DNA from: a virus
Taxonomy: Duplodnaviria; Heunggongvirae; Uroviricota; Caudoviricetes
Length of the DNA stretch: 17,408 nt
Virus record (IMG/VR): IMGVR_UViG_2630968397_000004
Direction: 5' to 3' (one strand)
The notes beneath the pieces are model-generated. The model was not told the DNA's origin. It did not search any database and saw only the letters and a program-made list of their open reading frames with translations. A program made the translations under genes and the position numbers. Every line of letters starts with the position of its first letter. Within the stretch, counting starts at the first letter, position 1. Of the stretch, positions 1,143-17,408 are shown in pieces.

Positions 1143-4100
1143 CTAATAAATAACACCCGTATATATCAGCGTATTATCCAGGGTCGTTCGGTTATAAATT
1201 TCAGCACCGTTTTTCTTCACTATCAGGCGGCATGACGAATAAATATTGTTATTCTTCCGCTCATGTTTAGCACCGCGAAACGCCACCGCGGGAATAACAA
1301 TTTGCCGATCAAACGGCTGATCGTCATAAACCCTGACGGTAATGGTCCCTGATGGCCACCTCTCCGGTGCCCGGGAGTCCCGTGGGAAAGGTTTGCCCAC
1401 TGTTTTAACGAGATCGCCTTCAATCTGGTTCGCGGACAATTTTCCCAGAACCCGACAGTTCTTATTAATCGTGACGTTGTTGAGCGTCCCGGAGTTCGCG
1501 TTCACGTTACCGCTGATATCGGCATTTTTCGCCGTCAGCCGTCCGCCAGGTGTCAGGGAAAATGCCGGAGGATTACCGCCGCTGGTAATGGTCGGAGCCG
1601 TCAGGCATTTCAGGAACACGTCGTTCATGAATATCTGATCGCCCTGACCAACAAACATCGGCTTTGTGTTGCCATTCGCAGGATTAATCATCGCAATCCT
1701 GTCTGCCGCCAGCAGCACCTGACTCTGCATTCCTGCTGGCGTATTCTCAATACCGGCACCGATACCCGCAATATAAAGGCGTCCGTCCTTCATCTGTTGC
1801 AGCTTCACAGCCCACATGCTGTTCAGGTTATTATTTGTATCAACCTGAACTTTCTGTATCTGCTGGATTGCAGCACTCTGATTTTCCAGTTTTTTATTGA
1901 CGGTTTGCGTGATTTCATTGCTGACATTCGTAATGGACGTCCTGATTTCAGTCAGGTCCGGCGCAAGCTGACCGTTATCAATCTGCGTCCACAACTCCTT
2001 GCCGAGATGCGTTTTATTGATCAACCCTTTATAAAAATTCAGATAACCTTCTGCATCATCGCTCGCCCGACCGATGGCCTCCACAAATGCCGATTTGCCA
2101 ACGGTGTTCACACTGCGAACGTAAAAATAATAATCATGGCCCGGCCTGATATTGATACTGGCGGCTATCCAGTACAGCGCCGTGCCAAGATAGCGGGCGC
2201 TGGTTTCAACCTGCCTGATATCCGCAATCCGCTTTTCCGAAAACCAGAACTCAAACTGCACCGTCGGGTCATATACAGCCAGTTTCGGGACCGCCGTTAT
2301 CTGAAAATACCCCGGTATCAGTTCAATAGTGACAGGCGCTGCCGGTGCCGCAATCCGGAACGATACCGACGCCGGATCGCCCTGCTGCCCCCGGGCATTT
2401 ACCGCCCGGACTGTCAGACTGTAATTCCCCAGCGCCAGCTGCCTGAAGCGGTATGTGGTTTCCGTCGTCCTGGCTGTGCTGACCAGCCGCTCACTGCCGT
2501 CGTCCGCTGCCACGGTCAGGCGAAGCAGGAAGCTCACACCCTTCACCACCTTCGGCGTGTCCCATCGCGCCAGCACCTGATATTCCCCGCTGTCTGCGGT
2601 GACTTCGGCGGTCAGATGCTGCACCGCTGGCGGCGTGACACCATTCACCGTGCCGCGCCGGTCACCGTCAAAGTGTGCCCCGTTATCCACGATGGCCTCT
2701 TTTTCCGGCACATGCTGCACGGCGGTGATGGCATACGTGCCGTCGTCGTTCTCACGGATACTCACGCAGCGGAACAGACGCTGGCGCAGCGTCGGCAGCT
2801 TCAGCCCCCACACGCTGTATTCTGCAACGCCGTCAGGAACCCGGCTCACTTTCACCTTCACGCCGTCGGTGACGGACTGGACCTCCACGCTGACCGGATT
2901 GCCACTTCCGTCAACCAGGCTTATCAGCGTGGTACCGGAGGACGGCAGCGTGATTTCACGGTCGAGCGTCAGCGTCCGGGTCTGGCTGTTCACCGCCAGT
3001 ACGCGACCACCGGTGCTGATACCGGCATAATCATCATCGCAGATTTCAATGACATCACCCGGTACATGGCGAAGCCCTTCTGCGCCCACGCTGAAGTCCA
3101 CGGTCTGCGTTTCCAGCAGTTCCGTTTTAATCAGCCACAGCCCGGCTCGGTGTGCCTGCCCCCGGCTGGTACAGCCAAAGGCATCCATCTTCGTGACATT
3201 ACGACCGTAACGGGCAATGGCCTGCGTATCCTCCACAAGCTCTGTCGCCGTCTCCCAGCCGTTATCTGGGTCAATCCAGTTCACCTCAACGGCATTATGG
3301 CGGTCCTTCAGGGCGCTGAAGCTGTAGCGGAACGGCGCGCCATCGTCCGGCATCACCACATTACTGCGGTTATAGGTCCACACCTTATCCGACGGTCGGT
3401 CCTGCACGAACGTCAGCATCTGTCCGTTCCATACCGGCATACAGCGCATCGCCGAGCAGAAATCACTGAGAACATCCCACGCCTTACGCTGTGTGGTCAG
3501 GTAAGAGTTACAGGTGATGCGCGGCTCCGTGCCGCCAAATCCGTCCGTCACTGACTGGTCGCAGTACTGGCCGATGACATACAGCGCCCATTTGTCCACA
3601 TCTGCCGCACCAAGACGTTTCCCCATGCCGTAGCGCGGATGAGTGAGCATGTCCCACAGACACCAGGCCATGTTGTTGCTGTATGCTGGCTTAAGCGTTC
3701 CGTCCCAGATACCGCTGTATTGCCGCGTCTGCGGGTTATAGTTCGACGGCACCTGCAGAATGCGCCCGCGAAGATGATAATTGCGACTCACCTGCTGGTT
3801 ACCGAACTGCTCTGAATCCACCTGCACGCCGACCAGCGCCGTGTTCGGGTAGCACTGTTTCACATCGATGATTTCGGTGTACGACGACCAGAGCGTTTTG
3901 TTCTGCAGCTGGTCTGTGGTGCTGTCCGGTGTCATCCTGCGCATCCGGATATTAAACGGGCGCGGCGGCAGGTTACCCACCACCACCGAGGCCAGATACT
4001 GCGAAGTGGTTTTGCCCTTAATGGTGATGTCTTTTTCCGTCACCCAGCCACCGTTACGCTGTATCTGAACCAGCAGGCGGACTTCCGACGGATTCCGGTC

Positions 4101-4484
4101 ACCCTTTGAGGTGGTTTCCACCAGTGCCTGCACACCGAAGGTCAGGCGCAGACGGTCGATGTTTGCCGACGTGATGGTCCGGGTGATCGGCGTGTCATAT
4201 TTCACTTCCGTACCCAGCACCGTCTCGGAGCCGGAGGATTCAAAACCCTCCGGCGGTGTCTGCTCCTGCTCACCTGCACGGAACACCACCGTAACACCGG
4301 AAAAGTTTGTCTTCCCCTCGCTGTCCAGGACCGGCGTACCGTTCAGCAGCACGCTTTTTAATCCATCCACCGGACCGTCAACCGGCCCTTCGCTGATGGC
4401 ATCAATCACACTCAGCAACTGCGTGGATTTCAGGTTGTCCTTCGCTTCGCGCGGGGTATGCCCCTTACTGCTGCCTTTACCCAT
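1143..4484 (-). CDS. J: lambda J-like host specificity protein / central tail fibre (1113 aa)
   Basis: ORF track 1113 aa starting [34 protein letters not shown]..., recognised as lambda gpJ over most of its length. GAGG Shine-Dalgarno 4 nt upstream of ATG. Sits downstream of I as in lambda. Confidence 0.93.
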
Positions 4485-4506
4485 TCCTCACGCTCCATAA
4501 ACGACA

Positions 4507-4526
4507 AAACCGCCCGCAGGCGGTTT
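4507..4526 (-). promoter_or_regulatory. 8-bp perfect hairpin (AAACCGCC-cgca-GGCGGTTT) followed by U-rich tract in I-J intergenic region; possible attenuator/terminator upstream of J
   Basis: Seen directly in sequence between I stop (4545) and J start (4484). On the sense (minus) strand the stem is followed by TTTTGTCGTTTAT. Confidence 0.3.
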
Positions 4527-4544
4527 CACATAAAACATTTTGCA

Positions 4545-5186
4545 TCAGCGACCAATCACCACAACCTGACCACCATCCCCTTCGTCTGCCGTGCTGATCT
4601 CCTGAGAAACCACACGTGACCCCACGCGCATTTCACCGTACAGAACGGGCAGAACATTGCCCTGGGCAACCATGTTATCCAGTGACGAGAAATACGTGTT
4701 CTGCTTACCGTTATCCGTTGTCTGTGTACGGGGAGTTCTGGCTTTCGGTGCCAGCATCTGTGCAACACCGCCAAGCGTCATACTGGCACCGAGAGAAAAC
4801 AGCAGATTACTCGCCATAATTCCTACCCCCGGCATCCATATAGCAACCGCCATAACAGCCGCCCCCAGCACCGCCTGAAACACACCGCCACTTTTAGCTC
4901 CCACCAGACGCGGTACTATGTGGATCACTGCACCATTTGCCAGCGGCTCATTAAGACGGGCAGACAATTCGGTTTCACCTGCATCACGCCCGGCAATGCG
5001 CACCTGATACCAGCCGTCACTCAGTTTCTGACGAAACGCCGGGAGCTGTGTGGCCAGTGCCCGGATGGCTTCAGCCCCCGTTTTCACACGAAGGTCGATG
5101 CGGCGACCAAATCGTTGTAAATCCCCGTAAAGGCAGATGCGCGCCATGCCCGGTGACGCCAGAGGGAGTGTGTGCGTCGCTGCCAT
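4545..5186 (-). CDS. I: lambda I-like tail tip assembly protein (213 aa)
   Basis: ORF track protein MAATHTLPLASPGMARICLYGDLQRFGRRIDLRVKTGAEAIRALATQLPAF... recognised as lambda gpI. Overlaps K by 103 nt as in lambda. Confidence 0.9.
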   Translation of the reverse strand: MAATHTLPLASPGMARICLYGDLQRFGRRIDLRVKTGAEAIRALATQLPAFRQKLSDGWYQVRIAGRDAGETELSARLNEPLANGAVIHIVPRLVGAKSGGVFQAVLGAAVMAVAIWMPGVGIMASNLLFSLGASMTLGGVAQMLAPKARTPRTQTTDNGKQNTYFSSLDNMVAQGNVLPVLYGEMRVGSRVVSQEISTADEGDGGQVVVIGR

Positions 5187-5827
5187 TTGTCGGTGTACCT
5201 CTCTCGTTTGCTCAGTTGTTCAGGAATATGGTGCAGCAGCCCGCCGTCACCGCAGTAAATGGCGGCATGATTCGGCACCGATGAACCAAAACAGCACAGC
5301 AGCACATCGCCCGGCTGTGCCTCTGTCAGTGCGACACGGTAAAAACCCGTCACCTCCATATTGTCAAGATAGAGATTCTGACCGTTACGCCACCAGTCAT
5401 CCCCGCGATGAAAATCCGGCATCTCAATCCCTGCCAGATGATAAGCATCCCGGAACAGCGTGTAACAGTCCGTCACCCCGTGCTCAAAGCGCCGCCCGGT
5501 GAGATGCGGCACACAGCGGAACTTGTGAATCGCCCCCCGGCAGACCAGCCACCACGGCAAATCACTCTGCACCTGCAGCCGCCGGTCAGCCTCACTCAGC
5601 CAGGGCAGACCACCGGGATGACTGTGGACCAGCGCCACAATCTCACCCTGCATTTGTGCCCGCAGCCAGTCCTCCGGAGCCATCCGGAACCGTTCCTCCG
5701 GCTCACCGGAGATATTCTCGCTGGGAAGATACCTGTCTCCCTCCGGCGTTCTTACCACGAAGCCACACGACTCCGCTGGCGCACATCGCCGGGCGTGCGC
5801 CAGAATCGCTGATTCTGTCTGTGTCAT
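5084..5827 (-). CDS. K: lambda K-like tail tip assembly protein (MPN/JAMM-like HSHP motif; 247 aa from the ATG at 5825-5827)
   Basis: Track ORF 5084..6091 starts at an upstream GTG that overlaps L and is probably over-extended. The in-frame ATG giving MTQTESAILAHARR... lies 4 nt after the L stop. A later internal ATG (5681-5683, MAPEDWL...) would give 199 aa. HSHPGG and NlpC/P60-like C-terminal region recognised. Confidence 0.85.
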   Translation of the reverse strand: MTQTESAILAHARRCAPAESCGFVVRTPEGDRYLPSENISGEPEERFRMAPEDWLRAQMQGEIVALVHSHPGGLPWLSEADRRLQVQSDLPWWLVCRGAIHKFRCVPHLTGRRFEHGVTDCYTLFRDAYHLAGIEMPDFHRGDDWWRNGQNLYLDNMEVTGFYRVALTEAQPGDVLLCCFGSSVPNHAAIYCGDGGLLHHIPEQLSKRERYTDKWQRRTHSLWRHRAWRASAFTGIYNDLVAASTFV

Positions 5828-5831
5828 GGAT

Positions 5832-6530
5832 TTACTGAGAAAGTTTATTGATGGAAAGGAAACCGCCGAAATTACCGGTATTGTTGCGCAACTCACACCC
5901 GCGCATACACTTGCTGCATTTGTCCTTCCGGATATCCGTCGTTGGTTTGTCGAACTCGTCAGCCACTGCCCTGCCCGTGTAACCACACTCATCAGAACGG
6001 TAAGTCCACATACAGGTATTCGCCAGCATGATACGCCCCGGGAAAACCGCGCCATCCGTCTCCGTTGGTGTGGCCAGCACAAAAGAGGCACTGACCGCGC
6101 TCAGTTCGCTGCACTGCTCGATGCGCCAGCGGCTGATCACCTCCTGTTCCGGATCGGCGTCGCTGTTTCCGTTGACGAAGTTCACCGCATCCAGAAAACG
6201 GGCGTAAACCTTACGCCTGACCACCGTTCCGCCGACCAGACTCTGCAGGTCTTCCGCCATCCCGGTGACCATTCCGTGCAGGTTAGAAACCGTCAGTGTC
6301 GGACGGGCAGCACTGCCCTTGCCGTTCAGTTCAAATCCCGTCCCCTGAATGGGGTATGCCTGATACTGCCGCCCCTGCCAGGTAACCGGCTCACCTTTTT
6401 CGTTCTGCTCATTACAGAAAAAATAACGTTCACCACCGACCTCTGTCAGATCGATTTCCCAGAGCACCACCTGGGCTGACTGAGTGAGGCGTGTCGTCTC
6501 ATGATGTGTTTCCTGTGGAATATCCTGCAT
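5832..6530 (-). CDS. L: lambda L-like tail tip protein (232 aa)
   Basis: ORF track protein MQDIPQETHHETTRLTQSAQVVLWEIDLTEVGGERYFFCNEQ... recognised as lambda gpL; same length and gene order as lambda. Confidence 0.9.
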   Translation of the reverse strand: MQDIPQETHHETTRLTQSAQVVLWEIDLTEVGGERYFFCNEQNEKGEPVTWQGRQYQAYPIQGTGFELNGKGSAARPTLTVSNLHGMVTGMAEDLQSLVGGTVVRRKVYARFLDAVNFVNGNSDADPEQEVISRWRIEQCSELSAVSASFVLATPTETDGAVFPGRIMLANTCMWTYRSDECGYTGRAVADEFDKPTTDIRKDKCSKCMRGCELRNNTGNFGGFLSINKLSQ

Positions 6531-6539
6531 CAGAGCCTC

Positions 6540-6869
6540 CTATGCCACGACCTGTTCAAAATCTGCCGTTATGGTTACCCACAACGCCCCCACGCTTGCC
6601 GACCATTTACGACAAACCACCCTGATCGGCTTCCAGTCATAAGGTGGCGTCCACTGAAATGCGCGGACGCCACCGTGCCGTTCCAGAAAGGCTTTTAAAA
6701 ATGGGTGTTCACCTTTACGAACACGTATCTTCACGCTGTAAGTCGACAACTGGTTATTCAGTCCCGCCGCACGACGCTGTTCATAACCATCGCCCAGCTT
6801 CACTGTCACCACTTTCGGCTCTGATACCACATTCATATCCGGGCGCACTTTCCAGTGAAACGTCTCCAT
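6540..6869 (-). CDS. M: lambda M-like tail tip protein (109 aa)
   Basis: ORF track protein METFHWKVRPDMNVVSEPKVVTVKLGDGYEQRRAAGLNNQ... recognised as lambda gpM. Start overlaps the stop of the H fragment. Confidence 0.9.
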   Translation of the reverse strand: METFHWKVRPDMNVVSEPKVVTVKLGDGYEQRRAAGLNNQLSTYSVKIRVRKGEHPFLKAFLERHGGVRAFQWTPPYDWKPIRVVCRKWSASVGALWVTITADFEQVVA

Positions 6870-7208
6870 TACCGGTATGCTCCACTTAACCGGCCACCAT
6901 CACGGGCCTGCTGTTGCATAAAGTCCGCGGCCGCTTTTTTCCCGAGGTCATAAACCACCTTCAGGGCAGCCGGACCTATCTGCCCGTTCGTGCCATCGTT
7001 ATTGATCTCAATGTTGTACTGCGGGGCAAACATCACCATGCCTGAACCACCAGTATCCGCCACACCCCCCAGCTTACCATCAGCACCGCGACGCAGTGGC
7101 AGAATGGCTTCAGGTCCCGCTTCCCCCATCACACCCGCGCCTTTTGCAAAAGCAAAAAACGTCGGACGGTTAACCACCGTGCCACTGTAGCGACTCAAAT
7201 CAGCAGAC
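6869..7208 (-). pseudogene. H: 3' fragment of lambda H-like tape measure gene, truncated by IS600 insertion
   Basis: Reading frame is open from the IS600 left end (7209) down to the stop at 6869 and encodes ...ADLSRYSGTVVNRPTFFAFAKGAGVMGEAGPEAILPLRRGADGKLGG..., a tape-measure C-terminus-like sequence. The track's leading MSVKLRLP residues are encoded by IS600 terminal sequence. Confidence 0.8.
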
Positions 7209-7690
7209 TGAGGTAGCCTGAGTTTAACGGACACTCCTTCCTGAAATAGAATGGCATCAGAAGGAGCTAATAATGAGCAGAAAAACCCAACGTTACTCTA
7301 AAGAGTTCAAAGCCGAAGCTGTCAGAACGGTTCCTGAAAATCAACTTTCGATCAGTGAAGGCGCTTCCCGATTATCTCTTCCTGAAGGCACTTTAGGACA
7401 ATGGGTTACCGCCGCCAGAAAAGGGCTCGGTACTCCTGGTTCCCGCACGGTGGCTGAACTGGAATCTGAAATTCTGCAACTGCGTAAGGCGTTAAATGAA
7501 GCTCGCCTTGAGCGAGATATATTAAAAAAAGCAACAGCGTATTTTGCACAGGAGTCGCTGAAAAATACGCGTTAATCGAACAATGGCGACAACAATTTCC
7601 CATTGAAGCGATGTGTCAGGTATTTGGTGTATCCAGGAGCGGTTATTACAACTGGGTACAGCATGAACCCTCAGACAGAAAACAAAGTGA
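7209..7690 (+). mobile_element. IS600 (IS3 family), truncated copy 1: left 482 bp only
   Basis: Starts with the same TGAGGTAGCCTGAGTTTAACGG terminus and orfA offset (64 nt) as the full-length copy at 15654-16917. Sequence stops matching after ...AAAGTGA, where a second IS600 left end begins. Confidence 0.9.
7273..7575 (+). CDS. IS600 OrfA (100 aa, helix-turn-helix transposase N-terminal part)
   Basis: ORF track; identical to orfA of copy 3. A7 slippery run (TTAAAAAAAGC) near the 3' end where the -1 frame is open. Confidence 0.9.
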   Translation: MSRKTQRYSKEFKAEAVRTVPENQLSISEGASRLSLPEGTLGQWVTAARKGLGTPGSRTVAELESEILQLRKALNEARLERDILKKATAYFAQESLKNTR

Positions 7691-7751
7691 GGTAGCCTGA
7701 GTTTAACGGACACTCCTTCCTGAAATAGAATGGCATCAGAAGGAGCTAATA

Positions 7752-8054
7752 ATGAGCAGAAAAACCCAACGTTACTCTAAAGAGTTCAAAGCCGAAGCTG
7801 TCAGAACGGTTCTTGAAAATCAACTTTCGATCAGTGAAGGCGCTTCCCGATTATCTCTTCCTGAAGGCACTTTAGGACAATGGGTTACCGCCGCCAGAAA
7901 AGGGCTCGGTACTCCTGGTTCCCGCACGGTGGCTGAACTGGAATCTGAAATTCTGCAACTGCGTAAGGCGTTAAATGAAGCTCGCCTTGAGCGAGATATA
8001 TTAAAAAAAGCAACAGCGTATTTTGCACAGGAGTCGCTGAAAAATACGCGTTAA
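7752..8054 (+). CDS. IS600 OrfA (100 aa)
   Basis: ORF track; P21L variant of the other copies. Confidence 0.9.
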   Translation: MSRKTQRYSKEFKAEAVRTVLENQLSISEGASRLSLPEGTLGQWVTAARKGLGTPGSRTVAELESEILQLRKALNEARLERDILKKATAYFAQESLKNTR

Positions 8055-8089
8055 TCGAACAATGGCGACAACAATTTCCCATTGAAGCG

Positions 8090-8729
8090 ATGTGTCAGGT
8101 ATTTGGTGTATCCAGGAGCGGTTATTACAACTGGGTACAGCATGAACCCTCAGACAGAAAACAAAGTGATGAGCGGCTAAAACTGGAGATTAAGGTGGCA
8201 CATATCCGCACTCGCGAAACATATGGAACCCGGCGGCTCCAGACGGAGCTGGCAGAGAATGGCATCATCGTTGGTCGTGACCGACTGGCACGTCTTCGTA
8301 AGGAGCTAAGGCTACGCTGTAAGCAGAAACGCAAGTTCAGAGCGACTACGAACTCGAACCACAATCTGCCAGTTGCGCCAAATCTGCTGAACCAGACGTT
8401 CGCTCCTACAGCACCAAATCAGGTCTGGGTGGCGGACCTGACGTATGTTGCCACACAGGAGGGATGGTTGTACCTCGCAGGAGCAGTCTGGTCTGAAAAC
8501 ATCAATGTCGCGTAAAGGTAACTGTTACGACAACGCTCCGATGGAAAGCTTCTGGGGAACGCTGAAAAATGAGAGCCTGAGCCACTATCGTTTTAATAAC
8601 CGGGATGAAGCCATCTCAGTAATACGGGAATACATTGAGATTTTCTACAATCGTCAGCGTCGTCACTCTCGTCTGGGGAATATCTCCCCGGCAGCCTTCA
8701 GGGAAAAATATCATCAGATGGCTGCTTAA
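8090..8729 (+). pseudogene. IS600 orfB disrupted by the 179-bp deletion (frameshifted; split into 141-aa and 94-aa track ORFs)
   Basis: Track ORFs 8090..8515 and 8445..8729 together correspond to the 272-aa OrfB of copy 3 minus residues IKDVYTCE...DYRVIQ. Confidence 0.85.
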
Positions 8730-8822
8730 AAAAAGAACAAATGGTAGTGTCCGCTATTGCCAGTACACCTCACACTCTATCCAACAAACCACCCACAGTT
8801 AATCGGAATAAAAGCAGAGTGC

Positions 8823-8895
8823 TTATGAATGATCGCACGCCCGAAGGTTAGTATTTCTGCACAGCAATTTTGCAAAAAAAGGCGATCATTCATAA
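8823..8895. repeat. 14-bp perfect inverted repeat (TTATGAATGATCGC / GCGATCATTCATAA) with 45-bp spacer
   Basis: Seen directly: arms at 8823-8836 and 8882-8895, between IS600 copy 2 and tRNA-Gly. Confidence 0.6.
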
Positions 8896-8902
8896 CTTAA
8901 AC

Positions 8903-8948
8903 GTCTTTCAGTCACTCCGGGATTTCCCATCATCGCAGACTGAAAGAC
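8903..8948. repeat. 11-bp perfect inverted repeat (GTCTTTCAGTC / GACTGAAAGAC) with 24-nt spacer, just downstream of the tRNA cluster 3' end
   Basis: Seen directly: arms at 8903-8913 and 8938-8948. Possible processing or terminator hairpin for the tRNA transcript. Confidence 0.5.
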
Positions 8949-8954
8949 TCTGAC

Positions 8955-9029
<75 letters not shown>

Positions 9030-9032
9030 ATA

Positions 9033-9108
<76 letters not shown>

Positions 9109-9110
9109 GC

Positions 9111-9187
9111 TGGCCCACCACCGAGGACTCGAACCTCGCACCGTCAACTTAGAAGGTTGATGCTCTATCCGGATGAGCTAGTGGTGG
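9111..9187 (-). tRNA. tRNA-Arg (anticodon UCU), 77 nt with encoded CCA
   Basis: Reverse complement CCACCACTAGCTCATCCGGATAGAGCATCAACCTTCTAAGTTGACGGTGCGAGGTTCGAGTCCTCGGTGGTGGGCCA. All four stems pair; anticodon loop CTTCTAA. Confidence 0.75.
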
Positions 9188-9188
9188 T

Positions 9189-9265
9189 TGGTGGCCCTTG
9201 CTGGACTTGAACCAGCGACCTGGCGATTATGAGTCGCTCGCTCTGACCAACTGAGCTAAAGGGCC
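9189..9265 (-). tRNA. tRNA with CAU anticodon, Ile2 (ileX/ileZ-like, lysidine) or Met, 77 nt with encoded CCA
   Basis: Reverse complement GGCCCTTTAGCTCAGTTGGTCAGAGCGAGCGACTCATAATCGCCAGGTCGCTGGTTCAAGTCCAGCAAGGGCCACCA. Close resemblance to E. coli tRNA-Ile2 (GCGACTCATAATCGC core and identical T arm). Separated from tRNA-Arg by 1 nt. Confidence 0.75.
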
Positions 9266-9353
9266 GGAGGCAGAATAATAACCATATGTCATCACATCTG
9301 CAAACTCATCTGACCACCAGCACGTTTAACGTCCTGTGCCGTTTTTCAGGTAT

Positions 9354-9375
9354 AAAAAAACCCGCATAAAGCGGG
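9354..9375 (-). terminator. Rho-independent terminator (tR'-like) about 80 bp downstream of the Q-like gene
   Basis: Hairpin CCCGC-ataaa-GCGGG at 9361-9375 with A7 at 9354-9360 on the plus strand, i.e. a U7 tract after the hairpin on the minus strand. Confidence 0.7.
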
Positions 9376-9454
9376 CTCTTTCAAATGTCCATGTCTGCTA
9401 TTCGCCTCGCGGTACAGCTTTGCGAAGCGTACAAGAATTGAAGCAGTTTTTACG

Positions 9455-10009
9455 TCAAAAAGCAATAACTTTTTTCTCTATACCAAAAGCCATAACCATT
9501 GGTTTGTACAAAATAAATTCTGCCACCTTTAGCCAATGCTCAATGCGTCTTTCACAGGTTCTTAAACTCCATTTCGGGTGTGCATCATTCAGCAGTTCAG
9601 CCATTTTGCGTTTGGTCATCCCCCGCCCCTCATACCGTTGCCGAAGGACGCTAATCAATCCTGGATGCTCTGCCAGCACCTCACTTATGACCCGATCAAT
9701 ACATAACGCCTCTGCATCAGTACAATGCGCCAGCCAGCTCTTTTGCTTACCGTTAATCATATCCCGCAAAAAAGCCTCAAGTTCAGACTTGTTCAGACCT
9801 GCTTTTTTCATCCTCCGGAGCGCCTCGTTAATTGCCGTTTTTGTCAGCTTTTTAGAGGTCAACATCAGGTTAAACATATTCCCCGTCTTACCGCCACCAA
9901 TATACGACCAGCGCCCCCACATACGTAGTTTTCCCTGAATCCAGACACTTTCCAGCGTGGTGAGACGAAGGTGTTCTCCGCTTTTTCCTGTATTCGTTGG
10001 GTAAATCAT
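9455..10009 (-). CDS. putative late-gene antiterminator Q-like protein (184 aa)
   Basis: In-frame ATG (MIYPTNTGKSGEHLRLTTLESVWIQGKLRMWGRWSYIGGG...) with AGGAGG Shine-Dalgarno 8 nt upstream. Start overlaps the YbcO-like stop (ATGA). Position is immediately upstream of the tR'-like terminator and phage tRNAs, as for Q in Stx-type lambdoid phages. Track ORF start at 10129 is over-extended. Family call is from positional logic and partial sequence recollection. Confidence 0.6.
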   Translation of the reverse strand: MIYPTNTGKSGEHLRLTTLESVWIQGKLRMWGRWSYIGGGKTGNMFNLMLTSKKLTKTAINEALRRMKKAGLNKSELEAFLRDMINGKQKSWLAHCTDAEALCIDRVISEVLAEHPGLISVLRQRYEGRGMTKRKMAELLNDAHPKWSLRTCERRIEHWLKVAEFILYKPMVMAFGIEKKVIAF

Positions 10010-10296
10010 AAATATCCCTCCTTTCTCCAGATTTCTTGTGTGCGAAAAACACCTTCTGCATGCATCAGGCGTAATTCTTCTTTGGTGTAATCGCTGGTTT
10101 TTACCCGCCCGTCGATTAAATCGTGGCACGAGCTACAGGCAATCGCTGCCTGCATATCGTGTGGCTTTATCGCTGTTCCGCACGTTCCCGCCAGTCGGTA
10201 ATGCGCCAGCACAGACGTTTCCGGATCGTGATTGCAGTAGCCAGGAATTCTGACGGTGCACATCTGCCCCCGCGCCGCTTTACGTAAATCCACCAT
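10006..10296 (-). CDS. YbcO-like (DUF1364) Cys-rich nin-region protein, putative nuclease (96 aa)
   Basis: ORF track protein MVDLRKAARGQMCTVRIPGYCNHDPETSVLAHYRLAGTCGTAIKPHDMQAAIACSSCHDLIDGR... resembles E. coli DLP12 YbcO as recalled. Confidence 0.7.
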   Translation of the reverse strand: MVDLRKAARGQMCTVRIPGYCNHDPETSVLAHYRLAGTCGTAIKPHDMQAAIACSSCHDLIDGRVKTSDYTKEELRLMHAEGVFRTQEIWRKEGYL

Positions 10297-10895
10297 TACG
10301 CAAACTCCAGCAGCTGCGCGGCCACATTTTCGACTTGTTCCGGAGAGGAAAATTTACGGAACAGAATCCAGTTCCACAGCACATTCAGAACAGATTTATA
10401 AACCTGCTGAAACTCGGTTTCGTCCATATTCGCAAAAGCGATGGATTTTGCCCGACGCCCGCGGCTACCGTCCGGATAAAAATGTTCGGTGTAAAATCCA
10501 GCCTGAATGGTTACCCACTCGCGAAAAGCCTCAAACGACTTTAGCAATGCCGTATCCCGGGTTCTGCGTGTCGCAACTGTATTCAGATATTGCTCTGCGG
10601 CTTCGCTCAGAGCTGGCGTATGTTCCCGACCTACTGATTCGCACAGGTAATCAACGAAACCAGACAGCAGTTCTCGTTCGCGAGGCGTGATCGCCCCACC
10701 GACCGGAGTCCAGTAATCGAATCCCAGTTGCAGGAGTTTGAAAAAACGCTTGTGGAATGCGTAGTTACGCACACGCTTAAAGTCTGCGTGTATCCACTCA
10801 CCTGTTTTGATTTGATGCAGAAAATCGCAACTCTCCGGCGTCGCCGGGAGAAGTAATCCGGAAGAGGTTTGTTTGATCAGTTGTATATGCGCCAT
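10296..10895 (-). CDS. nin-region phage protein of unknown function (199 aa; possibly DUF1367 family)
   Basis: ORF track. Stop overlaps the YbcO-like start. Family assignment is from recollection of typical gene order and is not verified. Confidence 0.6.
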   Translation of the reverse strand: MAHIQLIKQTSSGLLLPATPESCDFLHQIKTGEWIHADFKRVRNYAFHKRFFKLLQLGFDYWTPVGGAITPRERELLSGFVDYLCESVGREHTPALSEAAEQYLNTVATRRTRDTALLKSFEAFREWVTIQAGFYTEHFYPDGSRGRRAKSIAFANMDETEFQQVYKSVLNVLWNWILFRKFSSPEQVENVAAQLLEFA

Positions 10896-10966
10896 CGTAG
10901 TTCTCCGCTGGCGCAGTAGAATGGGTGTTCAGCCCGTTATGTAGTATACCAGAATTAATGCCAATA

Positions 10967-11179
10967 CTAACAGGATGCTCTGACTCGCAATTCATCCAGC
11001 AGTTTATCATTTCCCATAATGTCACTTACCCTCATCGGTAAAAAAATTGCCTTTCGACCATTACGATACATCATTGATTTTTTGGTTTCAGGGAAGTAAT
11101 CCATTTCGACTATAACTGACAGGTCATCACGACGTATGACTGCGTATTTACTACTAAATAGTTTCTTTATTTTTTCCAC
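10967..11179 (-). CDS. hypothetical 70-aa protein, GTG start
   Basis: ORF track. Start codon is GTG, preceded by GGAGG 4 nt upstream. No recognisable family. Confidence 0.5.
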   Translation of the reverse strand: MEKIKKLFSSKYAVIRRDDLSVIVEMDYFPETKKSMMYRNGRKAIFLPMRVSDIMGNDKLLDELRVRASC

Positions 11180-11285
11180 GATGCCTCCAGGTTTATAAGT
11201 ACAAACGGTTATATCAACATAGAGACAAAAGGTGATGCTGCCAACTTACTGATTTAGTGTATGATCGTGTTTTTGAGGTGCTCCA

Positions 11286-11561
11286 GTGGCTTCTGTTTCT
11301 ATCAGCTGTCCCTCCTGTTCAGCTACTGACGGGGTGGTGCGTAACGGCAAAAGCACTGCCGGACATCAGCGCTATCTCTGCTCTCACTGCCGTAAAACAT
11401 GGCAACTGCAGTTCACTTACACCGCTTCCCAACCCGGTACGCACCAGAAAATCATTGATATGGCCATGAATGGCGTTGGATGCCGGGCAACTGCACGCAT
11501 TATGGGCGTTGGCCTCAACACGATTTTACGTCACTTAAAAAACTCAGGCCGCAGTCGGTAA
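11286..11561 (+). CDS. insA: IS1 InsA (91 aa)
   Basis: ORF track protein [43 protein letters not shown]... A6C frameshift motif TTAAAAAACTC at 11535-11545. Confidence 0.95.
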
Positions 11562-11983
11562 CCTCGCGCATACAGCCGGGCAGTGACGTCATCGTCTGCG
11601 CGGAAATGGACGAACAGTGGGGCTATGTCGGGGCTAAATCGCGCCAGCGCTGGCTGTTTTACGCGTATGACAGTCTCCGGAAGACGGTTGTTGCGCACGT
11701 ATTCGGTGAACGCACTATGGCGACGCTGGGGCGTCTTATGAGCCTGCTGTCACCCTTTGACGTGGTGATATGGATGACGGATGGCTGGCCGCTGTATGAA
11801 TCCCGCCTGAAGGGAAAGCTGCACGTAATCAGCAAGCGATATACGCAGCGAATTGAGCGGCATAACCTGAATCTGAGGCAGCACCTGGCACGGCTGGGAC
11901 GGAAGTCGCTGTCGTTCTCAAAATCGGTGGAGCTGCATGACAAAGTCATCGGGCATTATCTGAACATAAAACACTATCAATAA
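11480..11983 (+). CDS. insB: IS1 InsB reading frame (expressed as InsAB' transposase by -1 frameshift)
   Basis: ORF track 167 aa; -1 frame relative to insA. Confidence 0.9.
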
Positions 11984-12059
11984 GTTGGAGTCATTACCAA
12001 AAAAACCGCCGAAACGGGTTAAGTGCGGGTGCGTTGAGGATGCCTGACACATCAAAGGT

Positions 12060-12081
12060 GGCGGGAGATTACTCTCCCGCC
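12060..12081 (-). terminator. 9-bp perfect hairpin (GGCGGGAGA-ttac-TCTCCCGCC) 10 nt downstream of the hok stop; putative hok mRNA 3' stem-loop/terminator
   Basis: Seen directly. Followed on the minus strand by ACCTTTGATGTG (moderately U-rich). Confidence 0.45.
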
Positions 12082-12090
12082 TGGTCACTC

Positions 12091-12246
12091 TTACTCTCTA
12101 GATTCGTAGTCTACGAAAACAGCGACCTCCGTCTGGCCGATTCGGATTCGTACCTCGCAGAGGTCTTTCCTCGTTACCAGTGCCGTCACAATGACGGTTA
12201 AACAGATGACGATCAGGGCGATTAACATCGCCTTTTGCTGCTTCAT
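12091..12246 (-). CDS. hok: Hok-family type I toxin (51 aa)
   Basis: MKQQKAMLIALIVICLTVIVTALVTRKDLCEVRIRIGQTEVAVFVDYESRE, recognised as Hok/Gef family (closest to HokD/RelF as recalled). SD AAGGAGAAG upstream of ATG. Track ORF 12091..12303 is the in-frame upstream (mok-like) extension. Confidence 0.85.
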   Translation of the reverse strand: MKQQKAMLIALIVICLTVIVTALVTRKDLCEVRIRIGQTEVAVFVDYESRE

Positions 12247-12420
12247 AGCCTGCTTCTCCTTGCCTTTCGGCACGTAAGAGGCTAACCTACATTTGTGAGA
12301 CATAGATTGGGCCTCAGATTAATGTTAAGCGTCTTGCAGGACGCGTAATGTTAACTGGGGCTTTTCTCTGTCTGCCTTACAGTGACATACCCGAGGCAGA
12401 CAGCCTCAAGCACCCGCAGC
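12247..12420 (-). promoter_or_regulatory. hok mRNA leader with mok-like upstream start and conserved hok/sok leader elements
   Basis: Minus-strand sequence GCTTGAGGCTGTCTGCCTC...GGCAGACAGAGAAAAGCCCC...AGGCCCAATCTATGTCTCAC...TAGCCTCTTAC...GCAAGGAGAAGCAGGCTATGAAG parallels the plasmid R1 hok/sok leader as recalled. Confidence 0.6.
12296..12350 (+). ncRNA. putative Sok-like antisense RNA, antitoxin of the hok locus
   Basis: Plus-strand promoter-like -35 TTGCCT (12260-12265), 17-bp spacer, -10 TAACCT (12283-12288), positioned like the R1 sok promoter. Transcript would be complementary to the mok-like start region. Hairpin GCGTC-ttgcag-GACGC at 12329-12344. Inferred, not proven. Confidence 0.35.
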
Positions 12421-12584
12421 AATCTTACCGACACCGATAAGAAAACGCTATTTTTTATTGCCAGCACCATCTATCCAGGCTAGTTTATCTGCGTCAGAAC
12501 GGCGCAATGCGCTCGCCTGAGATACGTTTACTTGCCATGGTAACAACAGGTAACGGCAATTGCTGTTTCTGTTTTGTTTCCTTC

Positions 12585-12615
12585 AAAAACCCCGGACCAT
12601 CAATCCGGGGTTTTT
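12585..12615. terminator. bidirectional Rho-independent terminator (AAAAA-CCCCGG-loop-CCGGGG-TTTTT)
   Basis: Seen directly: stem 12590-12595 / 12605-12610, A5 at 12585-12589 and T5 at 12611-12615. Lies immediately after the 27-aa ORF stop on the minus strand. Confidence 0.75.
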
Positions 12616-12620
12616 GTTTG

Positions 12621-12704
12621 TTAACCCCAACGGCAAATCGAATACACCACCAGCGCCACCGCCATCGCAATTCCTACCGTGGTGAATGCCTCAGGCCAGG
12701 TCAT
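12621..12704 (-). CDS. 27-aa hydrophobic peptide (MTWPEAFTTVGIAMAVALVVYSICRWG), translationally coupled to the upstream gene
   Basis: Manual translation. ATG overlaps the stop of the DUF551-like gene (ATGA). GGAGGTG 5 nt upstream. Followed directly by the terminator. Below the ORF-track size cutoff. Confidence 0.45.
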   Translation of the reverse strand: MTWPEAFTTVGIAMAVALVVYSICRWG

Positions 12705-13066
12705 TGATTCACCTCCTGCGGTGGTTCCGGTAGCGGCATCCAGTGAGTTGAGCTCTCTACTTCAACGCCGTCTTTGTCCACAAAAGCCATCTTATTCCCG
12801 CCACGAGTGGGGCAAAAAACCTTATCCCAGGAACCGGGGAATACATTCCCGAGATCATCGAGAAGAATCACATCGCAATATTCAGCAGGAACTGCATCAC
12901 TACAGCTTATCCAGCCAGCCGGAGCTACCGGAGAGTTGCCAGCCTTACGCATGGCCATTTCCACGATTTCAACCATATCTCCTGGTGGAATTTTACAAAG
13001 TTGCCCAATACATTTCTGCTGCCTGGCATATTCGAGAATGTGCTCCAGTTTGGTTCGATTAATCAT
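12701..13066 (-). CDS. DUF551-like phage protein (121 aa)
   Basis: ORF track. C-terminal WISCSDAVPAEY...VILLDDLGNVFPGSWDK...THWMPLPEPP resembles the conserved DUF551 C-terminal motif as recalled. Start overlaps the stop of the upstream 221-aa gene. Confidence 0.65.
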   Translation of the reverse strand: MINRTKLEHILEYARQQKCIGQLCKIPPGDMVEIVEMAMRKAGNSPVAPAGWISCSDAVPAEYCDVILLDDLGNVFPGSWDKVFCPTRGGNKMAFVDKDGVEVESSTHWMPLPEPPQEVNQ

Positions 13067-13731
13067 TATTTATCTCCCTTAAGCATGGCAGCGCGGCAGG
13101 CGTTCCAGCCATCAACATAATCAAACGTATTACTATCGTTTGGCCCGATTTCATCCGGCACTATCGGCTCTGGTTGGATAGTGACGTTGGCAAAGGCAGC
13201 ACGCAAACCGGTTTTAATTTCTTCGATTTCATCAGAGCCAAGCGATGAATCTGACAGTGCGTGATGGAATGCGTAAGCCATGTCGTCGTTTACTGCAACC
13301 GGCACTGCCGGCGCTGCGTAAAGCGGTGTTATATCTGCCCGAAAATCACATGCTTTATGCAGTCGTACCCAACACTCAACTTCCGCTTTGTCAAAATATA
13401 TAGCAGTGAACGTATTAGATTCCTGGTCAACTTGAGTAAACGTCACCTTCCACGCTACAGCTACGGCTTTCCATCCATCAGGTTGTCGCATTCGCGGGGC
13501 AGCATAAAGCTCATGCATTCCATCAGGCAGCGAGTGACCCACATACTCACCGAACCCGTCAATACACATGCCCCCATCTTCAACAATGCATTCCGCTACA
13601 GGCTCTGCTTCCAGTGATGCCAGAGCGATAAGCGCCAGTTCACGAATTTCACCGCCGTCTATATCGTCAATATCATCGCGGCCAGAAATGTTAGCCAGCC
13701 ATTGCAGTCGCTCTTTGGTAATAGTGGTCAT
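13066..13731 (-). CDS. hypothetical phage protein (221 aa, acidic N-terminus)
   Basis: ORF track. Start overlaps the HNH stop (ATGA) and stop overlaps the downstream start, so the three genes are translationally coupled. No recognisable family. Confidence 0.7.
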   Translation of the reverse strand: MTTITKERLQWLANISGRDDIDDIDGGEIRELALIALASLEAEPVAECIVEDGGMCIDGFGEYVGHSLPDGMHELYAAPRMRQPDGWKAVAVAWKVTFTQVDQESNTFTAIYFDKAEVECWVRLHKACDFRADITPLYAAPAVPVAVNDDMAYAFHHALSDSSLGSDEIEEIKTGLRAAFANVTIQPEPIVPDEIGPNDSNTFDYVDGWNACRAAMLKGDK

Positions 13732-14093
13732 GCCGTAGCCCCTTCTTGATATTTTTCAAACCAGAACACAACCGGGTCAGATTTCATTTCAACCAATCCC
13801 ATACGAACCAGCGCTTTGCCTTTCCCGGACGCAAGGAATTCACGACGACCATCACTGATAATTCGTCGATAATCTTCCAGGCTACTGCAATGCTTGTGCA
13901 GATTGCATGGGTGGCATGCTGGTACCATGTTGGATATATCGTCACGTTCCTGGTGAAGCATATTTCCATCAAAACGAATGACCGGTTTTACATGGTCTGC
14001 ATGCCACTTTTCGCCAAGTTCGCAGCCGCAATAAGCGCAGCGACCACCGAACTTCATGCGCAGTTCTGCACGTTGTTTTTTCGTCAGTGCCAT
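13728..14093 (-). CDS. HNH endonuclease (121 aa)
   Basis: In-frame ATG at 14091-14093 with AAGGAAAG Shine-Dalgarno. MALTKKQRAELRMKFGGRCAYCGCELGEKWHADHVKPVIRFDGNMLHQERDDISNMVPACHPCNLHK has the C-x2-C, H-x-D-H, N and C-x2-C-N-x-H-K elements of the HNH/His-Me finger. Track ORF start at 14183 is over-extended. Confidence 0.85.
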   Translation of the reverse strand: MALTKKQRAELRMKFGGRCAYCGCELGEKWHADHVKPVIRFDGNMLHQERDDISNMVPACHPCNLHKHCSSLEDYRRIISDGRREFLASGKGKALVRMGLVEMKSDPVVFWFEKYQEGATA

Positions 14094-14094
14094 A

Positions 14095-14313
14095 TCAGCT
14101 TTCCTTATACGGATTAATTTTATTGTGCAGTGTGTTGAATGACGCCCATACCACGTCGTTATACAATTCAATAACTGGCTCAATTATTTTTCCGATTATC
14201 CAGACAAAAATTAGCGGGGATATCGGTGTCATCAACACGATAAACAGAATGAGAAACAGGAATTCTGTTGTTCTACTCTTTCGCGGATATTTTTTTCTAA
14301 ATAATGTAACCAT
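14095..14313 (-). CDS. possible 72-aa small membrane protein in an AT-rich segment
   Basis: ORF track. One strongly hydrophobic segment (FLFLILFIVLMTPISPLIFVWIIGKII). Weak Shine-Dalgarno; the local AT-richness means this could be a chance ORF. Confidence 0.35.
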   Translation of the reverse strand: MVTLFRKKYPRKSRTTEFLFLILFIVLMTPISPLIFVWIIGKIIEPVIELYNDVVWASFNTLHNKINPYKES

Positions 14314-14405
14314 TCATTACCGCCCTTTCGGGCGGTCTCCTGATGATTTGAGGGTGCAGAAATCCCTCCGGTTAAGGATTAAATTTTTAACAGTGCTAAA
14401 TTTAA

Positions 14406-14746
14406 TTATTCAGTTCTGGATTTTGTCGCCCTGCGTATCCGCGCTTTCGCGTTACGCTCAATCTGTATCAGCTTTTCTATATTTCTCCGCCTTTCCTGTT
14501 CCTCCTGGCGCAATAGCCTTACATCATCTGCCAGTCTGGTTTCTCTTTTTGCCACAGAGAGCATCCAGTCAAACGGCTCCACAACCGCACCGCAGATTTT
14601 ACAGCGGACCTGACGCTCTTTTTCGTCAACCCGGACAGAGGCGTGATGGCAATATGGTCTTTCCGATGGTTCATAAAGAAAATTAACCTGATTACGTGGG
14701 TCATCCTCTTTTACCGGAAATAAAACGATATTGCTTAACTCATCTT
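14406..14746 (-). pseudogene. 3' portion of a 118-aa Zn-ribbon/basic coiled-coil phage gene interrupted by IS1 copy B
   Basis: Frame is open from the IS1 junction to TAA at 14406-14408 (...CHHASVRVDEKERQVRCKICGAVVEPFDWMLSVAKRETRLADDVRLLRQEEQERRRNIEKLIQIERNAKARIRRATKSRTE). Continues across the IS1 target duplication into 15515-15540. Confidence 0.6.
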
Positions 14747-14801
14747 GGTGATGCTGCCAACTTACTGATTTAGTGTATGATGGTGTTTTTGAGGTGCTCC
14801 A

Positions 14802-15077
14802 GTGGCTTCTGTTTCTATCAGCTGTCCCTCCTGTTCAGCTACTGACGGGGTGGTGCGTAACGGCAAAAGCACTGCCGGACATCAGCGCTATCTCTGCTCT
14901 CACTGCCGTAAAACATGGCAACTGCAGTTCACTTACACCGCTTCTCAACCCGGTACGCACCAGAAAATCATTGATATGGCCATGAATGGCGTTGGATGCC
15001 GGGCAACAGCACGCATTATGGGCGTTGGCCTCAACACGATTTTACGTCACTTAAAAAACTCAGGCCGCAGTCGGTAA
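14802..15077 (+). CDS. insA: IS1 InsA (91 aa)
   Basis: ORF track; A6C frameshift motif present. Confidence 0.95.
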
Positions 15078-15499
15078 CCTCGCGCATACAGCCGGGCAGT
15101 GACGTCATCGTCTGCGCGGAAATGGACGAACAGTGGGGCTATGTCGGGGCTAAATCGCGCCAGCGCTGGCTGTTTTACGCGTATGACAGTCTCCGGAAGA
15201 CGGTTGTTGCGCACGTATTCGGTGAACGCACTATGGCGACGCTGGGGCGTCTTATGAGCCTGCTGTCACCCTTTGACGTGGTGATATGGATGACGGATGG
15301 CTGGCCGCTGTATGAATCCCGCCTGAAGGGAAAGCTGCACGTAATCAGCAAGCGATATACGCAGCGAATTGAGCGGCATAACCTGAATCTGAGGCAGCAC
15401 CTGGCACGGCTGGGACGGAAGTCGCTGTCGTTCTCAAAATCGGTGGAGCTGCATGACAAAGTCATCGGGCATTATCTGAACATAAAACACTATCAATAA
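14996..15499 (+). CDS. insB: IS1 InsB reading frame
   Basis: ORF track. Confidence 0.9.
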
Positions 15500-15514
15500 G
15501 TTGGAGTCATTACC

Positions 15515-15540
15515 AACTCATCTTCTGGTTTTATTTCCAT
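15515..15540 (-). pseudogene. 5' portion (start codon and first codons MEIKPEDEL...) of the IS1-interrupted 118-aa gene
   Basis: ATG at 15538-15540 (minus) with AAAGGAGAGGAGC upstream. Joining across one copy of the 10-bp duplication restores a continuous 118-codon ORF. Confidence 0.55.
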
Positions 15541-15717
15541 GCTCCTCTCCTTTGATGCGAATACCAGCGGTAATTGAAGCCTGATAGCTAATTTTACTCA
15601 CAGTACCGCCTCCTGAAATTTCCCCTGATAAAACGCCAGCACGCGCTGCATAGTGAGGTAGCCTGAGTTTAACGGACACTCCTTCCTGAAATAGAATGGC
15701 ATCAGAAGGAGCTAATA

Positions 15718-16020
15718 ATGAGCAGAAAAACCCAACGTTACTCTAAAGAGTTCAAAGCCGAAGCTGTCAGAACGGTTCCTGAAAATCAACTTTCGATCAG
15801 TGAAGGCGCTTCCCGATTATCTCTTCCTGAAGGCACTTTAGGACAATGGGTTACCGCCGCCAGAAAAGGGCTCGGTACTCCTGGTTCCCGCACGGTGGCT
15901 GAACTGGAATCTGAAATTCTGCAACTGCGTAAGGCGTTAAATGAAGCTCGCCTTGAGCGAGATATATTAAAAAAAGCAACAGCGTATTTTGCACAGGAGT
16001 CGCTGAAAAATACGCGTTAA
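15718..16020 (+). CDS. IS600 OrfA (100 aa)
   Basis: ORF track. Confidence 0.95.
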   Translation: MSRKTQRYSKEFKAEAVRTVPENQLSISEGASRLSLPEGTLGQWVTAARKGLGTPGSRTVAELESEILQLRKALNEARLERDILKKATAYFAQESLKNTR

Positions 16021-16055
16021 TCGAACAATGGCGACAACAATTTCCCATTGAAGCG

Positions 16056-16874
16056 ATGTGTCAGGTATTTGGTGTATCCAGGAGCGGTTATTACAACTGG
16101 GTACAGCATGAACCCTCAGACAGAAAACAAAGTGATGAGCGGCTAAAACTGGAGATTAAGGTGGCACATATCCGCACTCGCGAAACATATGGAACCCGGC
16201 GGCTCCAGACGGAGCTGGCAGAGAATGGCATCATCGTTGGTCGTGACCGACTGGCACGTCTTCGTAAGGAGCTAAGGCTACGCTGTAAGCAGAAACGCAA
16301 GTTCAGAGCGACTACGAACTCGAACCACAATCTGCCAGTTGCGCCAAATCTGCTGAACCAGACGTTCGCTCCTACAGCACCAAATCAGGTCTGGGTGGCG
16401 GACCTGACGTATGTTGCCACACAGGAGGGATGGTTGTACCTCGCTGGCATCAAAGATGTTTATACGTGCGAAATTGTCGGCTACGCCATGGGAGAGCGCA
16501 TGACAAAAGAGCTGACAGGTAAAGCCCTGTTTATGGCGCTCAGGAGCCAGCGCCCACCTGCCGGGCTAATCCACCACTCTGATCGAGGTTCACAGTACTG
16601 CGCATACGATTACCGGGTCATACAGGAGCAGTCTGGTCTGAAAACATCAATGTCGCGTAAAGGTAACTGTTACGACAACGCTCCGATGGAAAGCTTCTGG
16701 GGAACGCTGAAAAATGAGAGCCTGAGCCACTATCGTTTTAATAACCGGGATGAAGCCATCTCAGTAATACGGGAATACATTGAGATTTTCTACAATCGTC
16801 AGCGTCGTCACTCTCGTCTGGGGAATATCTCCCCGGCAGCCTTCAGGGAAAAATATCATCAGATGGCTGCTTAA
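16056..16874 (+). CDS. IS600 OrfB (DDE transposase catalytic part; produced as OrfAB fusion by -1 frameshift)
   Basis: ORF track 272 aa. The -1 frame is open upstream back to the A7 slippery run at the end of orfA. Confidence 0.95.
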   Translation: MCQVFGVSRSGYYNWVQHEPSDRKQSDERLKLEIKVAHIRTRETYGTRRLQTELAENGIIVGRDRLARLRKELRLRCKQKRKFRATTNSNHNLPVAPNLLNQTFAPTAPNQVWVADLTYVATQEGWLYLAGIKDVYTCEIVGYAMGERMTKELTGKALFMALRSQRPPAGLIHHSDRGSQYCAYDYRVIQEQSGLKTSMSRKGNCYDNAPMESFWGTLKNESLSHYRFNNRDEAISVIREYIEIFYNRQRRHSRLGNISPAAFREKYHQMAA

Positions 16875-16917
16875 AAAAAGAACAAATGGTAGTGTCCGCT
16901 ATTGCCAGTACACCTCA

Positions 16918-17408
16918 TTGTGAATGTCAGAAGAAACCTGACGATACTTGATATGTTCGGTCCCCCAAAAACAAATGCCGGGATCCGGACGGTAACATTA
17001 CTGCAGCCGGCTCTTGAAGCACTGAAGGAGCAATACAAACTGACCGGGCATCATCGCAAAAGCGAAATCACTTTTTATCATCGGGAGTACGGCAGAACTG
17101 AAAAGCAAAAACTGCATTTTGTTTTCATGCCCAGGGTGTGTAACGAAAAACAGAAACCTTATTACTCGGTAAGCAGTTTGGGTGCAAGATGGAATGCAGC
17201 AGTAAAACGTGCTGGTATTCGCCGCCGTAATCCGTACCATACGCGACATACTTTTGCCTGCTGGCTGTTGACGGCAGGAGCGAACCCGGCATTTATAGCC
17301 AGCCAGATGGGGCATGAAACTGCGCAAATGGTGTATGAAATTTACGGTATGTGGATTGATGACATGAACGACGAACAGATAGCCATGTTGAATGCGCGGT
17401 TATCGTAG
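16918..17408 (+). pseudogene. 3' fragment of a phage tyrosine integrase (catalytic C-terminal domain), truncated at its 5' side by IS600
   Basis: Frame is open from the IS600 right end to TAG at 17406-17408. ...NAGIRTVTLLQ...YHTRHTFACWLLTAGANPAFIASQMGHETAQMVYEIYGMW shows R...HxxR...Y tyrosine-recombinase elements. Track ORF start (TTG 16902) lies inside IS600. No upstream coding continuation left of the IS. Confidence 0.75.

Follow-up and report, generated by a model that had tools for sequence, protein, structure and literature searches.

The two abutting copies of the insertion sequence IS600 analysed here sit on a ~17-kb deletion scar in a defective lambdoid prophage, and a one-step IS-adjacent deletion carried out by the second copy in a degraded Shigella sonnei prophage has about an even chance of being the event that left this scar. 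The pair lies in a window of 17,408 nucleotides (the whole stretch of DNA that was analysed, IMG/VR record IMGVR_UViG_2630968397_000004), together with a third, intact IS600 that served as reference for the alignments. The window carries the following features:

6869-7208, minus strand: 3' remnant of the tape-measure gene, its last 340 nt, cut by IS600 copy 1
7209-7687, plus strand: IS600 copy 1, a remnant corresponding to IS600 positions 1-479, identical to copy 3 at 479 of 479 positions in the pairwise alignment
7685-7687: AAG, IS600 positions 477-479, the target triplet joined to the left end of copy 2
7688-8772, plus strand: IS600 copy 2, both terminal repeats intact, lacking IS600 positions 791-969 (179 bp)
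8090-8515, plus strand: truncated orfB of copy 2 (141 aa), spanning the junction 8477/8478 and stopping 38 nt beyond it
8478-8729, plus strand: 3' part of orfB of copy 2
8773-8954: phage intergenic DNA, 182 nt between the holin gene and the tRNA cluster, starting with CAC
8955-9265, minus strand: prophage tRNA cluster (Gly, Thr, Arg, Ile/Met(CAT))
15654-16917, plus strand: IS600 copy 3, intact, 1264 bp

S. sonnei is the species in which IS600 was first described and defined. Five insertion sequences, IS600 among them, have undergone expansion throughout Shigella; in S. sonnei IS600 shows high recent activity and varies from strain to strain (PMC7373316). The element of the window is 99.5% identical at the nucleotide level to RefSeq features named 'IS3-like element IS600 family transposase' (over 1280 bases, 99% of 1291), and what is retained of copies 1 and 2 matches copy 3 at 99.9-100% identity. 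The termini are of the TG...CA type, TGAGGTAGCC... and ...GTACACCTCA, and copies 2 and 3 carry them at either end. In copy 3, orfA encodes HTH_Tnp_1 and orfB HTH_21 plus rve/rve_3/rve_2, the arrangement expected for a fusion by -1 frameshifting, and a 'programmed frameshift' is annotated by RefSeq on identical IS600 copies of E. coli; copy 2 shows this arrangement only partially, its rve core being interrupted. Compared with a full IS600, a member of the IS3 family, copy 1 is a 479-bp 5' fragment and copy 2 has lost 179 bp from its catalytic core. The pairwise alignment of the three copies, which the first-pass annotation had proposed as a check, bore out copy 1, copy 2 and the boundaries of the deletion.

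Copy 1 had been described as the first 482 bp of IS600. The truncation stands, but the length has to be corrected: the TGA at 7688-7690, which had been named as the shared start of copy 2 and is read directly from the sequence, is compatible with IS600 480-482 and IS600 1-3 alike, so that 482 bp is an upper bound for copy 1 and 479 bp the better reading. The remnant contains the left inverted repeat, the whole orfA (7273-7575, with Pro21), the frameshift region and 77 nt at the start of the orfB ATG frame; the HTH_Tnp_1 domain is present, the catalytic domain is absent, and of the terminal repeats only the left one is found. The 3' 785 bp of copy 1 are gone. As had also been noted, they do not resume beyond copy 2, where phage intergenic DNA follows from 8773 onwards instead of AAG plus IS600 480-1264.

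The orfA of copy 2 (7752-8054) is complete and encodes 100 aa, like that of copy 1, with Leu at position 21, and over the retained parts copy 2 differs from copy 3 by a single base, T7813 in place of C (C126T), which results in OrfA P21L. This difference between the copies is real, but it is a weak argument against a tandem duplication, for which it had been used, since a SNP can arise afterwards and all S. sonnei alleles carry it. The loss of 179 bp of orfB at the junction 8477/8478, with the resulting frameshift, was likewise recovered in the alignment with copy 3, with a 1-bp 'C' ambiguity at the junction. The truncated orfB retains the HTH_21 domain and the first catalytic Asp (WVADLTY), and the 3' part, encoding rve_3/rve_2 with the catalytic Glu region (NAPMESFW), is out of frame with the 5' part. 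OrfB residues 130-189 (AGIKDVY...HHSDRGSQYCAYDYRVI) are lost, a stretch that holds HHSDRGSQY and, with it, the second Asp of the DDE triad. An intact triad, as expected of an autonomous copy, is found in copy 3 and in neither copy 1 nor copy 2. As a catalytic Asp is lost and the frame is shifted, copy 2 is predicted to be unable to make transposase while keeping both ends, and would now be a non-autonomous element; judged from its reading frames, the locus encodes two full OrfA proteins and zero transposase. Only one base is shared at the ends of the 179-bp deletion, which for this reason looks like an ordinary illegitimate deletion.

From position 1146 to 17408 the window matches S. sonnei Ss046 (CP000038.1) with one mismatch (99.99% identity). 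Positions 1-1145 differ from Ss046 and match the gene of an E. coli 'recombinase family protein' with 95-96% identity, so the window represents an Ss046-like strain with another left neighbour; the J tail-tip gene is cut short by the breakpoint at 1145/1146 (1113 versus 1159 aa), where no IS end is found. To the left of the IS pair the minus strand carries the lambda-like tail genes J, I, K, L and M, which are 96-98% identical to those of E. coli prophages, and the remnant of the tape-measure gene, whose called ORF of 121 aa (6869-7234, SSON_1768) begins within the left end of copy 1; in the prophage of E. coli VL40 the intact gene measures ~3 kb. To the right the Q-like/Nin region of lambdoid prophages lies beyond the tRNA cluster. 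The tRNA gene at 9189-9265 (minus strand) is called Met (anticodon CAT) by ARAGORN, and the orthologous prophage gene is called tRNA-Ile by RefSeq. In intact prophages the right breakpoint reads GGAAAG/CACTCTATCC, with genes for holin, lysozyme, Rz and terminase to its left, and the right flank of copy 2 is identical to these phages. The two breakpoints are ~17.1-17.3 kb apart in the collinear VL40 prophage, where all genes for lysis, packaging, head and tail shaft lie between them, along with most of the tape-measure gene. The assignment of the IS pair to a ~17-kb scar follows from this spacing and from the identification of the flanks as tail genes and tRNA-Q region. The genes of the locus have already been annotated in GenBank as IS600 ORF1/ORF2 and a tape-measure fragment.

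The block formed by copies 1 and 2 is flanked by GAC on the left and CAC on the right, and copy 3 by TAG and TTG, i.e. none of the three copies of the window has the 3-bp target duplication that was found at 13 of the 17 other full-length IS600 copies sampled. A target duplication is a property of the insertion event and not of the element; given that copy 3 lacks one, it is probably also a product of recombination or adjacent deletion. Among the 13 duplications ATG occurs three times and CAC and AAC twice each, and several left flanks contain CATG; a weak target preference of IS600 is suggested. As CAC recurs as an IS600 target duplication elsewhere, the CAC at 8773 is probably one half of the original 3-bp duplication of copy 2, the right end of which would still be at its original insertion site.

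At the joint between the two copies (7687/7688), AAG477-479 is followed directly by the outermost base of the left end of copy 2. The same triplet is used in E. coli 2014C-4423 (NZ_CP027454.1, 3838701-3841231), where a complete IS600 is nested in another IS600 at AAG477-479. There, the inner element has the opposite orientation and AAG is duplicated on both sides of it, whereas the S. sonnei copies are in direct orientation; the outer element has kept both halves and its own CTG duplication, with no associated deletion. Both halves of the recipient and a target duplication of the nested copy are found in 2014C-4423 but not in the window, and the E. coli case is an independent transposition into the three bases that form the S. 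sonnei joint. Because the joint falls precisely on the tip of the IS and an independent insertion with a 3-bp duplication occurred at the same AAG, we infer that the joint was made by IS600 transposase and not by microhomology at TGA. That TGA fits both sides is coincidental, IS600 480-482 happening to equal IS600 1-3. Of the two origins offered by the first-pass annotation, insertion of copy 2 into copy 1 or joining by recombination, the former is supported by the tip-exact joint and the AAG duplication of 2014C-4423, and the latter is disfavoured.

Two adjacent copies of one IS in direct orientation also resemble the tandem (IS)2 dimers and IRR-IRL circles of IS911, IS2 and IS30. Unlike in those, the left end of copy 2 does not abut a right end with a spacer of 3-4 bp, but internal position 479: the sequence in front of it is internal IS600, ...GAAAACAAAG, instead of ...CACCTCA plus spacer. 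A tandem dimer was ruled out on these grounds. As no right end precedes copy 2, the locus possesses neither an active IRR-IRL junction nor a junction promoter.

The joint was searched for elsewhere with a probe of 44 bases, 22 on each side, with seeds only across the joint; queries of 60 bp were misleading, the two halves of any normal IS600 being merged into one 'place'. Across 5,426 complete E. coli genomes the probe gave one partial match, namely the inverted insertion of 2014C-4423, and this strain was also the sole match of a query for the right half of a nested insertion (CCTCA/AAGTGATGAGCGG). The joint was not found in plasmids, GTDB species representatives, IMG/VR or metagenomes. The junction of the 179-bp deletion is absent from the complete E. 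coli genomes, where 10 of 10 full-coverage matches were two pieces of an intact copy, and it was not found in plasmids, IMG/VR or metagenome contigs; the deletion variant has not spread. The presumed ancestors, a tape-measure gene carrying copy 1 in full and a copy 2 with CAC on both sides, were not encountered among the 5,426 E. coli genomes.

Within S. sonnei the locus is polymorphic. That the 179-bp deletion varies among strains and that the pair spans a prophage deletion of ~17 kb are both additions to the first-pass annotation. The 121-aa protein of the tape-measure remnant is present exactly on ~440 contigs, and alleles were read from the longest contigs that carry the remnant ORF (24 contigs). 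Allele A consists of the remnant 1-479 and a copy 2 at full length, whose right flank is that of the window, and is found on two 4.8-Mb contigs (L008 and L010). Allele B, with the remnant 1-479 and a copy 2 lacking 791-969, is that of Ss046, of contig L009 and of the present window; the search for the deletion variant in other genomes, which had been suggested, has its positive result here. Allele C, on contig L007 (GCA_965230885.1), combines a remnant of positions 1-255 with a full-length copy 2 and the same right flank. Compared with the window allele it has 224 bp less of copy 1, and the deletion is flush with the same left-end tip, without microhomology. A 67-aa ORF across the junction between position 255 and the left end occurs exactly on 60 contigs from many assemblies, demonstrating that allele C is real. 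T126 (P21L) is found in copy 2 of all S. sonnei alleles, identifying copy 2 as the same element throughout. The truncated OrfB of allele B (141 aa) is exact in AAZ88457.1 (Ss046, CP000038.1) and in ALZ55779.1 from a second S. sonnei record, and the deletion-spanning proteins AAZ88457, ALZ55779 and SRW26765 come from S. sonnei only. From the three S. sonnei alleles and the absence of the junction in the other collections searched we conclude that the 179 bp were lost late, in a restricted lineage and at a single locus.

Some contigs deviate from these alleles. A 31-kb contig (L014, UDSB01000042.1) has the 479-bp remnant and a full-length copy 2 with a different right flank; the right end of copy 2 adjoins a CRISPR-Cas (cas3/cse1) region, either by an IS600-mediated rearrangement or by a mis-join of the contig. 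Contig L016 has the intact base at position 792 and then ends. Three short-read S. sonnei contigs (L011, L012, L015) run across the IS600 of the tape-measure site or leave it out and continue into other prophage tail genes, one of them with an N at the joint; they look like chimeric assemblies through the IS600 repeat.

The locus displays the marks of an IS-adjacent deletion: one endpoint coincides with an IS tip, the other flank is unchanged, a target duplication is lacking, and DNA present in relatives is missing. In the one-step reading copy 1 would have inserted into the tape-measure gene and copy 2 at CAC in the intergenic region between holin gene and tRNA cluster. The left end of copy 2 would then have attacked AAG477-479 of copy 1 on the same molecule, and this intramolecular attack would have removed the intervening DNA, namely ~17 kb carrying phage late genes together with the 785 bp at the 3' end of copy 1. 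In this reading, a 224-bp deletion flush with the left-end tip later reduced the remnant to 255 bp in one S. sonnei sublineage, and an illegitimate deletion of 179 bp, with 1 bp of microhomology, arose in copy 2 in the Ss046-like lineage. An adjacent deletion, an event that IS3-family elements undergo frequently and in steps, is favoured by allele C, a second tip-flush deletion without microhomology, and by the precedent of IS150, likewise of the IS3 family, which in the E. coli long-term evolution experiment gave rise to adjacent deletions that lack target duplications and grow stepwise (PMC11708052). The IS150 deletions share with the present locus the endpoint flush with the IS tip, the unchanged other flank, the missing target duplication and, if the 479-bp and 255-bp remnants of the two S. 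sonnei alleles are compared, the stepwise growth; different from IS150, the target attacked here would be a second IS600, and its triplet was hit independently in E. coli. On the other side, transposition of IS3-family elements proceeds via a circle by copy-out/paste-in (PMC2909936), a pathway that does not by itself delete donor-adjacent DNA, and the final product of the one-step route is identical to that of a nested insertion followed by homologous recombination. Prophages are also mosaic, and the two flanks could derive from two different prophages.

That nested insertion is a real competitor, if one we hold to be somewhat short of an even chance: an IS600 circle would have inserted in direct orientation at AAG477-479 of copy 1, duplicating 3 bp, and RecA-dependent recombination would then have removed the rest, either by pairing the inner copy with an IS600 of the same orientation located at the tRNA site, resulting in the 17-kb deletion, or, if the outer copy already bridged the deletion, by pairing the adjacent 477-1264 repeats of the inner and outer copies. 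The joint would be transposase-made as in the one-step deletion, and the two differ in the deletion step alone. The complete nested state does exist at exactly this triplet, with the AAG duplication, in 2014C-4423; the route agrees with the canonical copy-out/paste-in pathway (PMC2909936), and recombination between IS copies is a standard source of missing target duplications, which copies 1, 2 and 3 all lack. However, it requires two or three events instead of one, no intermediate was seen among the 24 S. sonnei contigs read, and the 255-bp allele would demand a second nested insertion and recombination at the same locus. The T126 SNP was considered for separating the two routes and rejected, as a locally transposed copy 2 would carry it too. 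A joint formed independently of transposase, by illegitimate recombination at the shared TGA or by tandem duplication of the first 479 bp of one IS600, has in its favour that TGA 7688-7690 is common to both copies and that the structure formally equals a single IS600 with its first 479 bp tandemly duplicated; we regard it as very improbable, given that the joint falls on the terminal base of the IS, that the insertion in 2014C-4423 uses the same triplet with a 3-bp target duplication, and that the joint of allele C is also flush with the tip and free of microhomology. An assembly artefact, i.e. mis-joined or collapsed copies of a multi-copy repeat of 1.26 kb, across which short-read contigs of this very locus are clearly chimeric (L011, L012, L015), is next to impossible: the joint of position 479 with the left end also occurs in the Sanger-finished genome of Ss046 and on several contigs of 4.8 Mb, three independent records contain exact matches to deletion-spanning proteins (AAZ88457, ALZ55779, SRW26765), and the ORF over the 255-bp junction recurs exactly on 60 contigs. 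The concern that the junctions might be mis-assembled repeats, raised with the initial reading, is settled by this recurrence of joint and deletion in independent S. sonnei assemblies.

The double use of AAG477-479 hints at a preferred self-target. The triplet directly precedes TGATGAG, and the left end of IS600 starts with TGAGG. We consider it possible but rather doubtful that IS600 carries in AAG477-479 an internal preferred self-target, which would make self-insertion and self-directed adjacent deletion recurrent and provide a built-in route of inactivation. Two independent cases support this idea (n=2), one in direct orientation in S. sonnei and one inverted in E. coli 2014C-4423, and being two among an unspecified total of IS600-in-IS600 events they make the repeated use of the triplet a lead and not a finding. 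In the 13 target duplications sampled no consensus emerged that would mark AAG/TGATGAG as a good target. A target region resembling the IS600 ends, as in the targeted insertion of IS911, was also considered; the resemblance is confined to the first 3-4 bases (TGA/TGAG) and was not counted as evidence.

Truncated, abutting and duplication-less IS copies as well as IS-bounded prophage deletions are routine in Shigella, and the scar is a known kind of event. What may be mildly new is the hint that one IS600-internal triplet was hit twice independently, a small lead on the target choice of IS3-family elements. Beyond that the locus illustrates the erosion of Shigella prophages by IS600 and the decay of an IS copy, and has little wider weight. 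In practical terms, the three alleles could act as lineage markers for S. sonnei typing, and the locus is a warning that short-read assemblies mis-join contigs here.

Two IS1 copies are located further to the right in the window. The one at 11231-11998 lacks a target duplication, and at its site the VL40 prophage has ~133 bp of phage DNA that are missing here; the one at 14747-15514 is flanked by a 10-bp duplication, AACTCATCTT.
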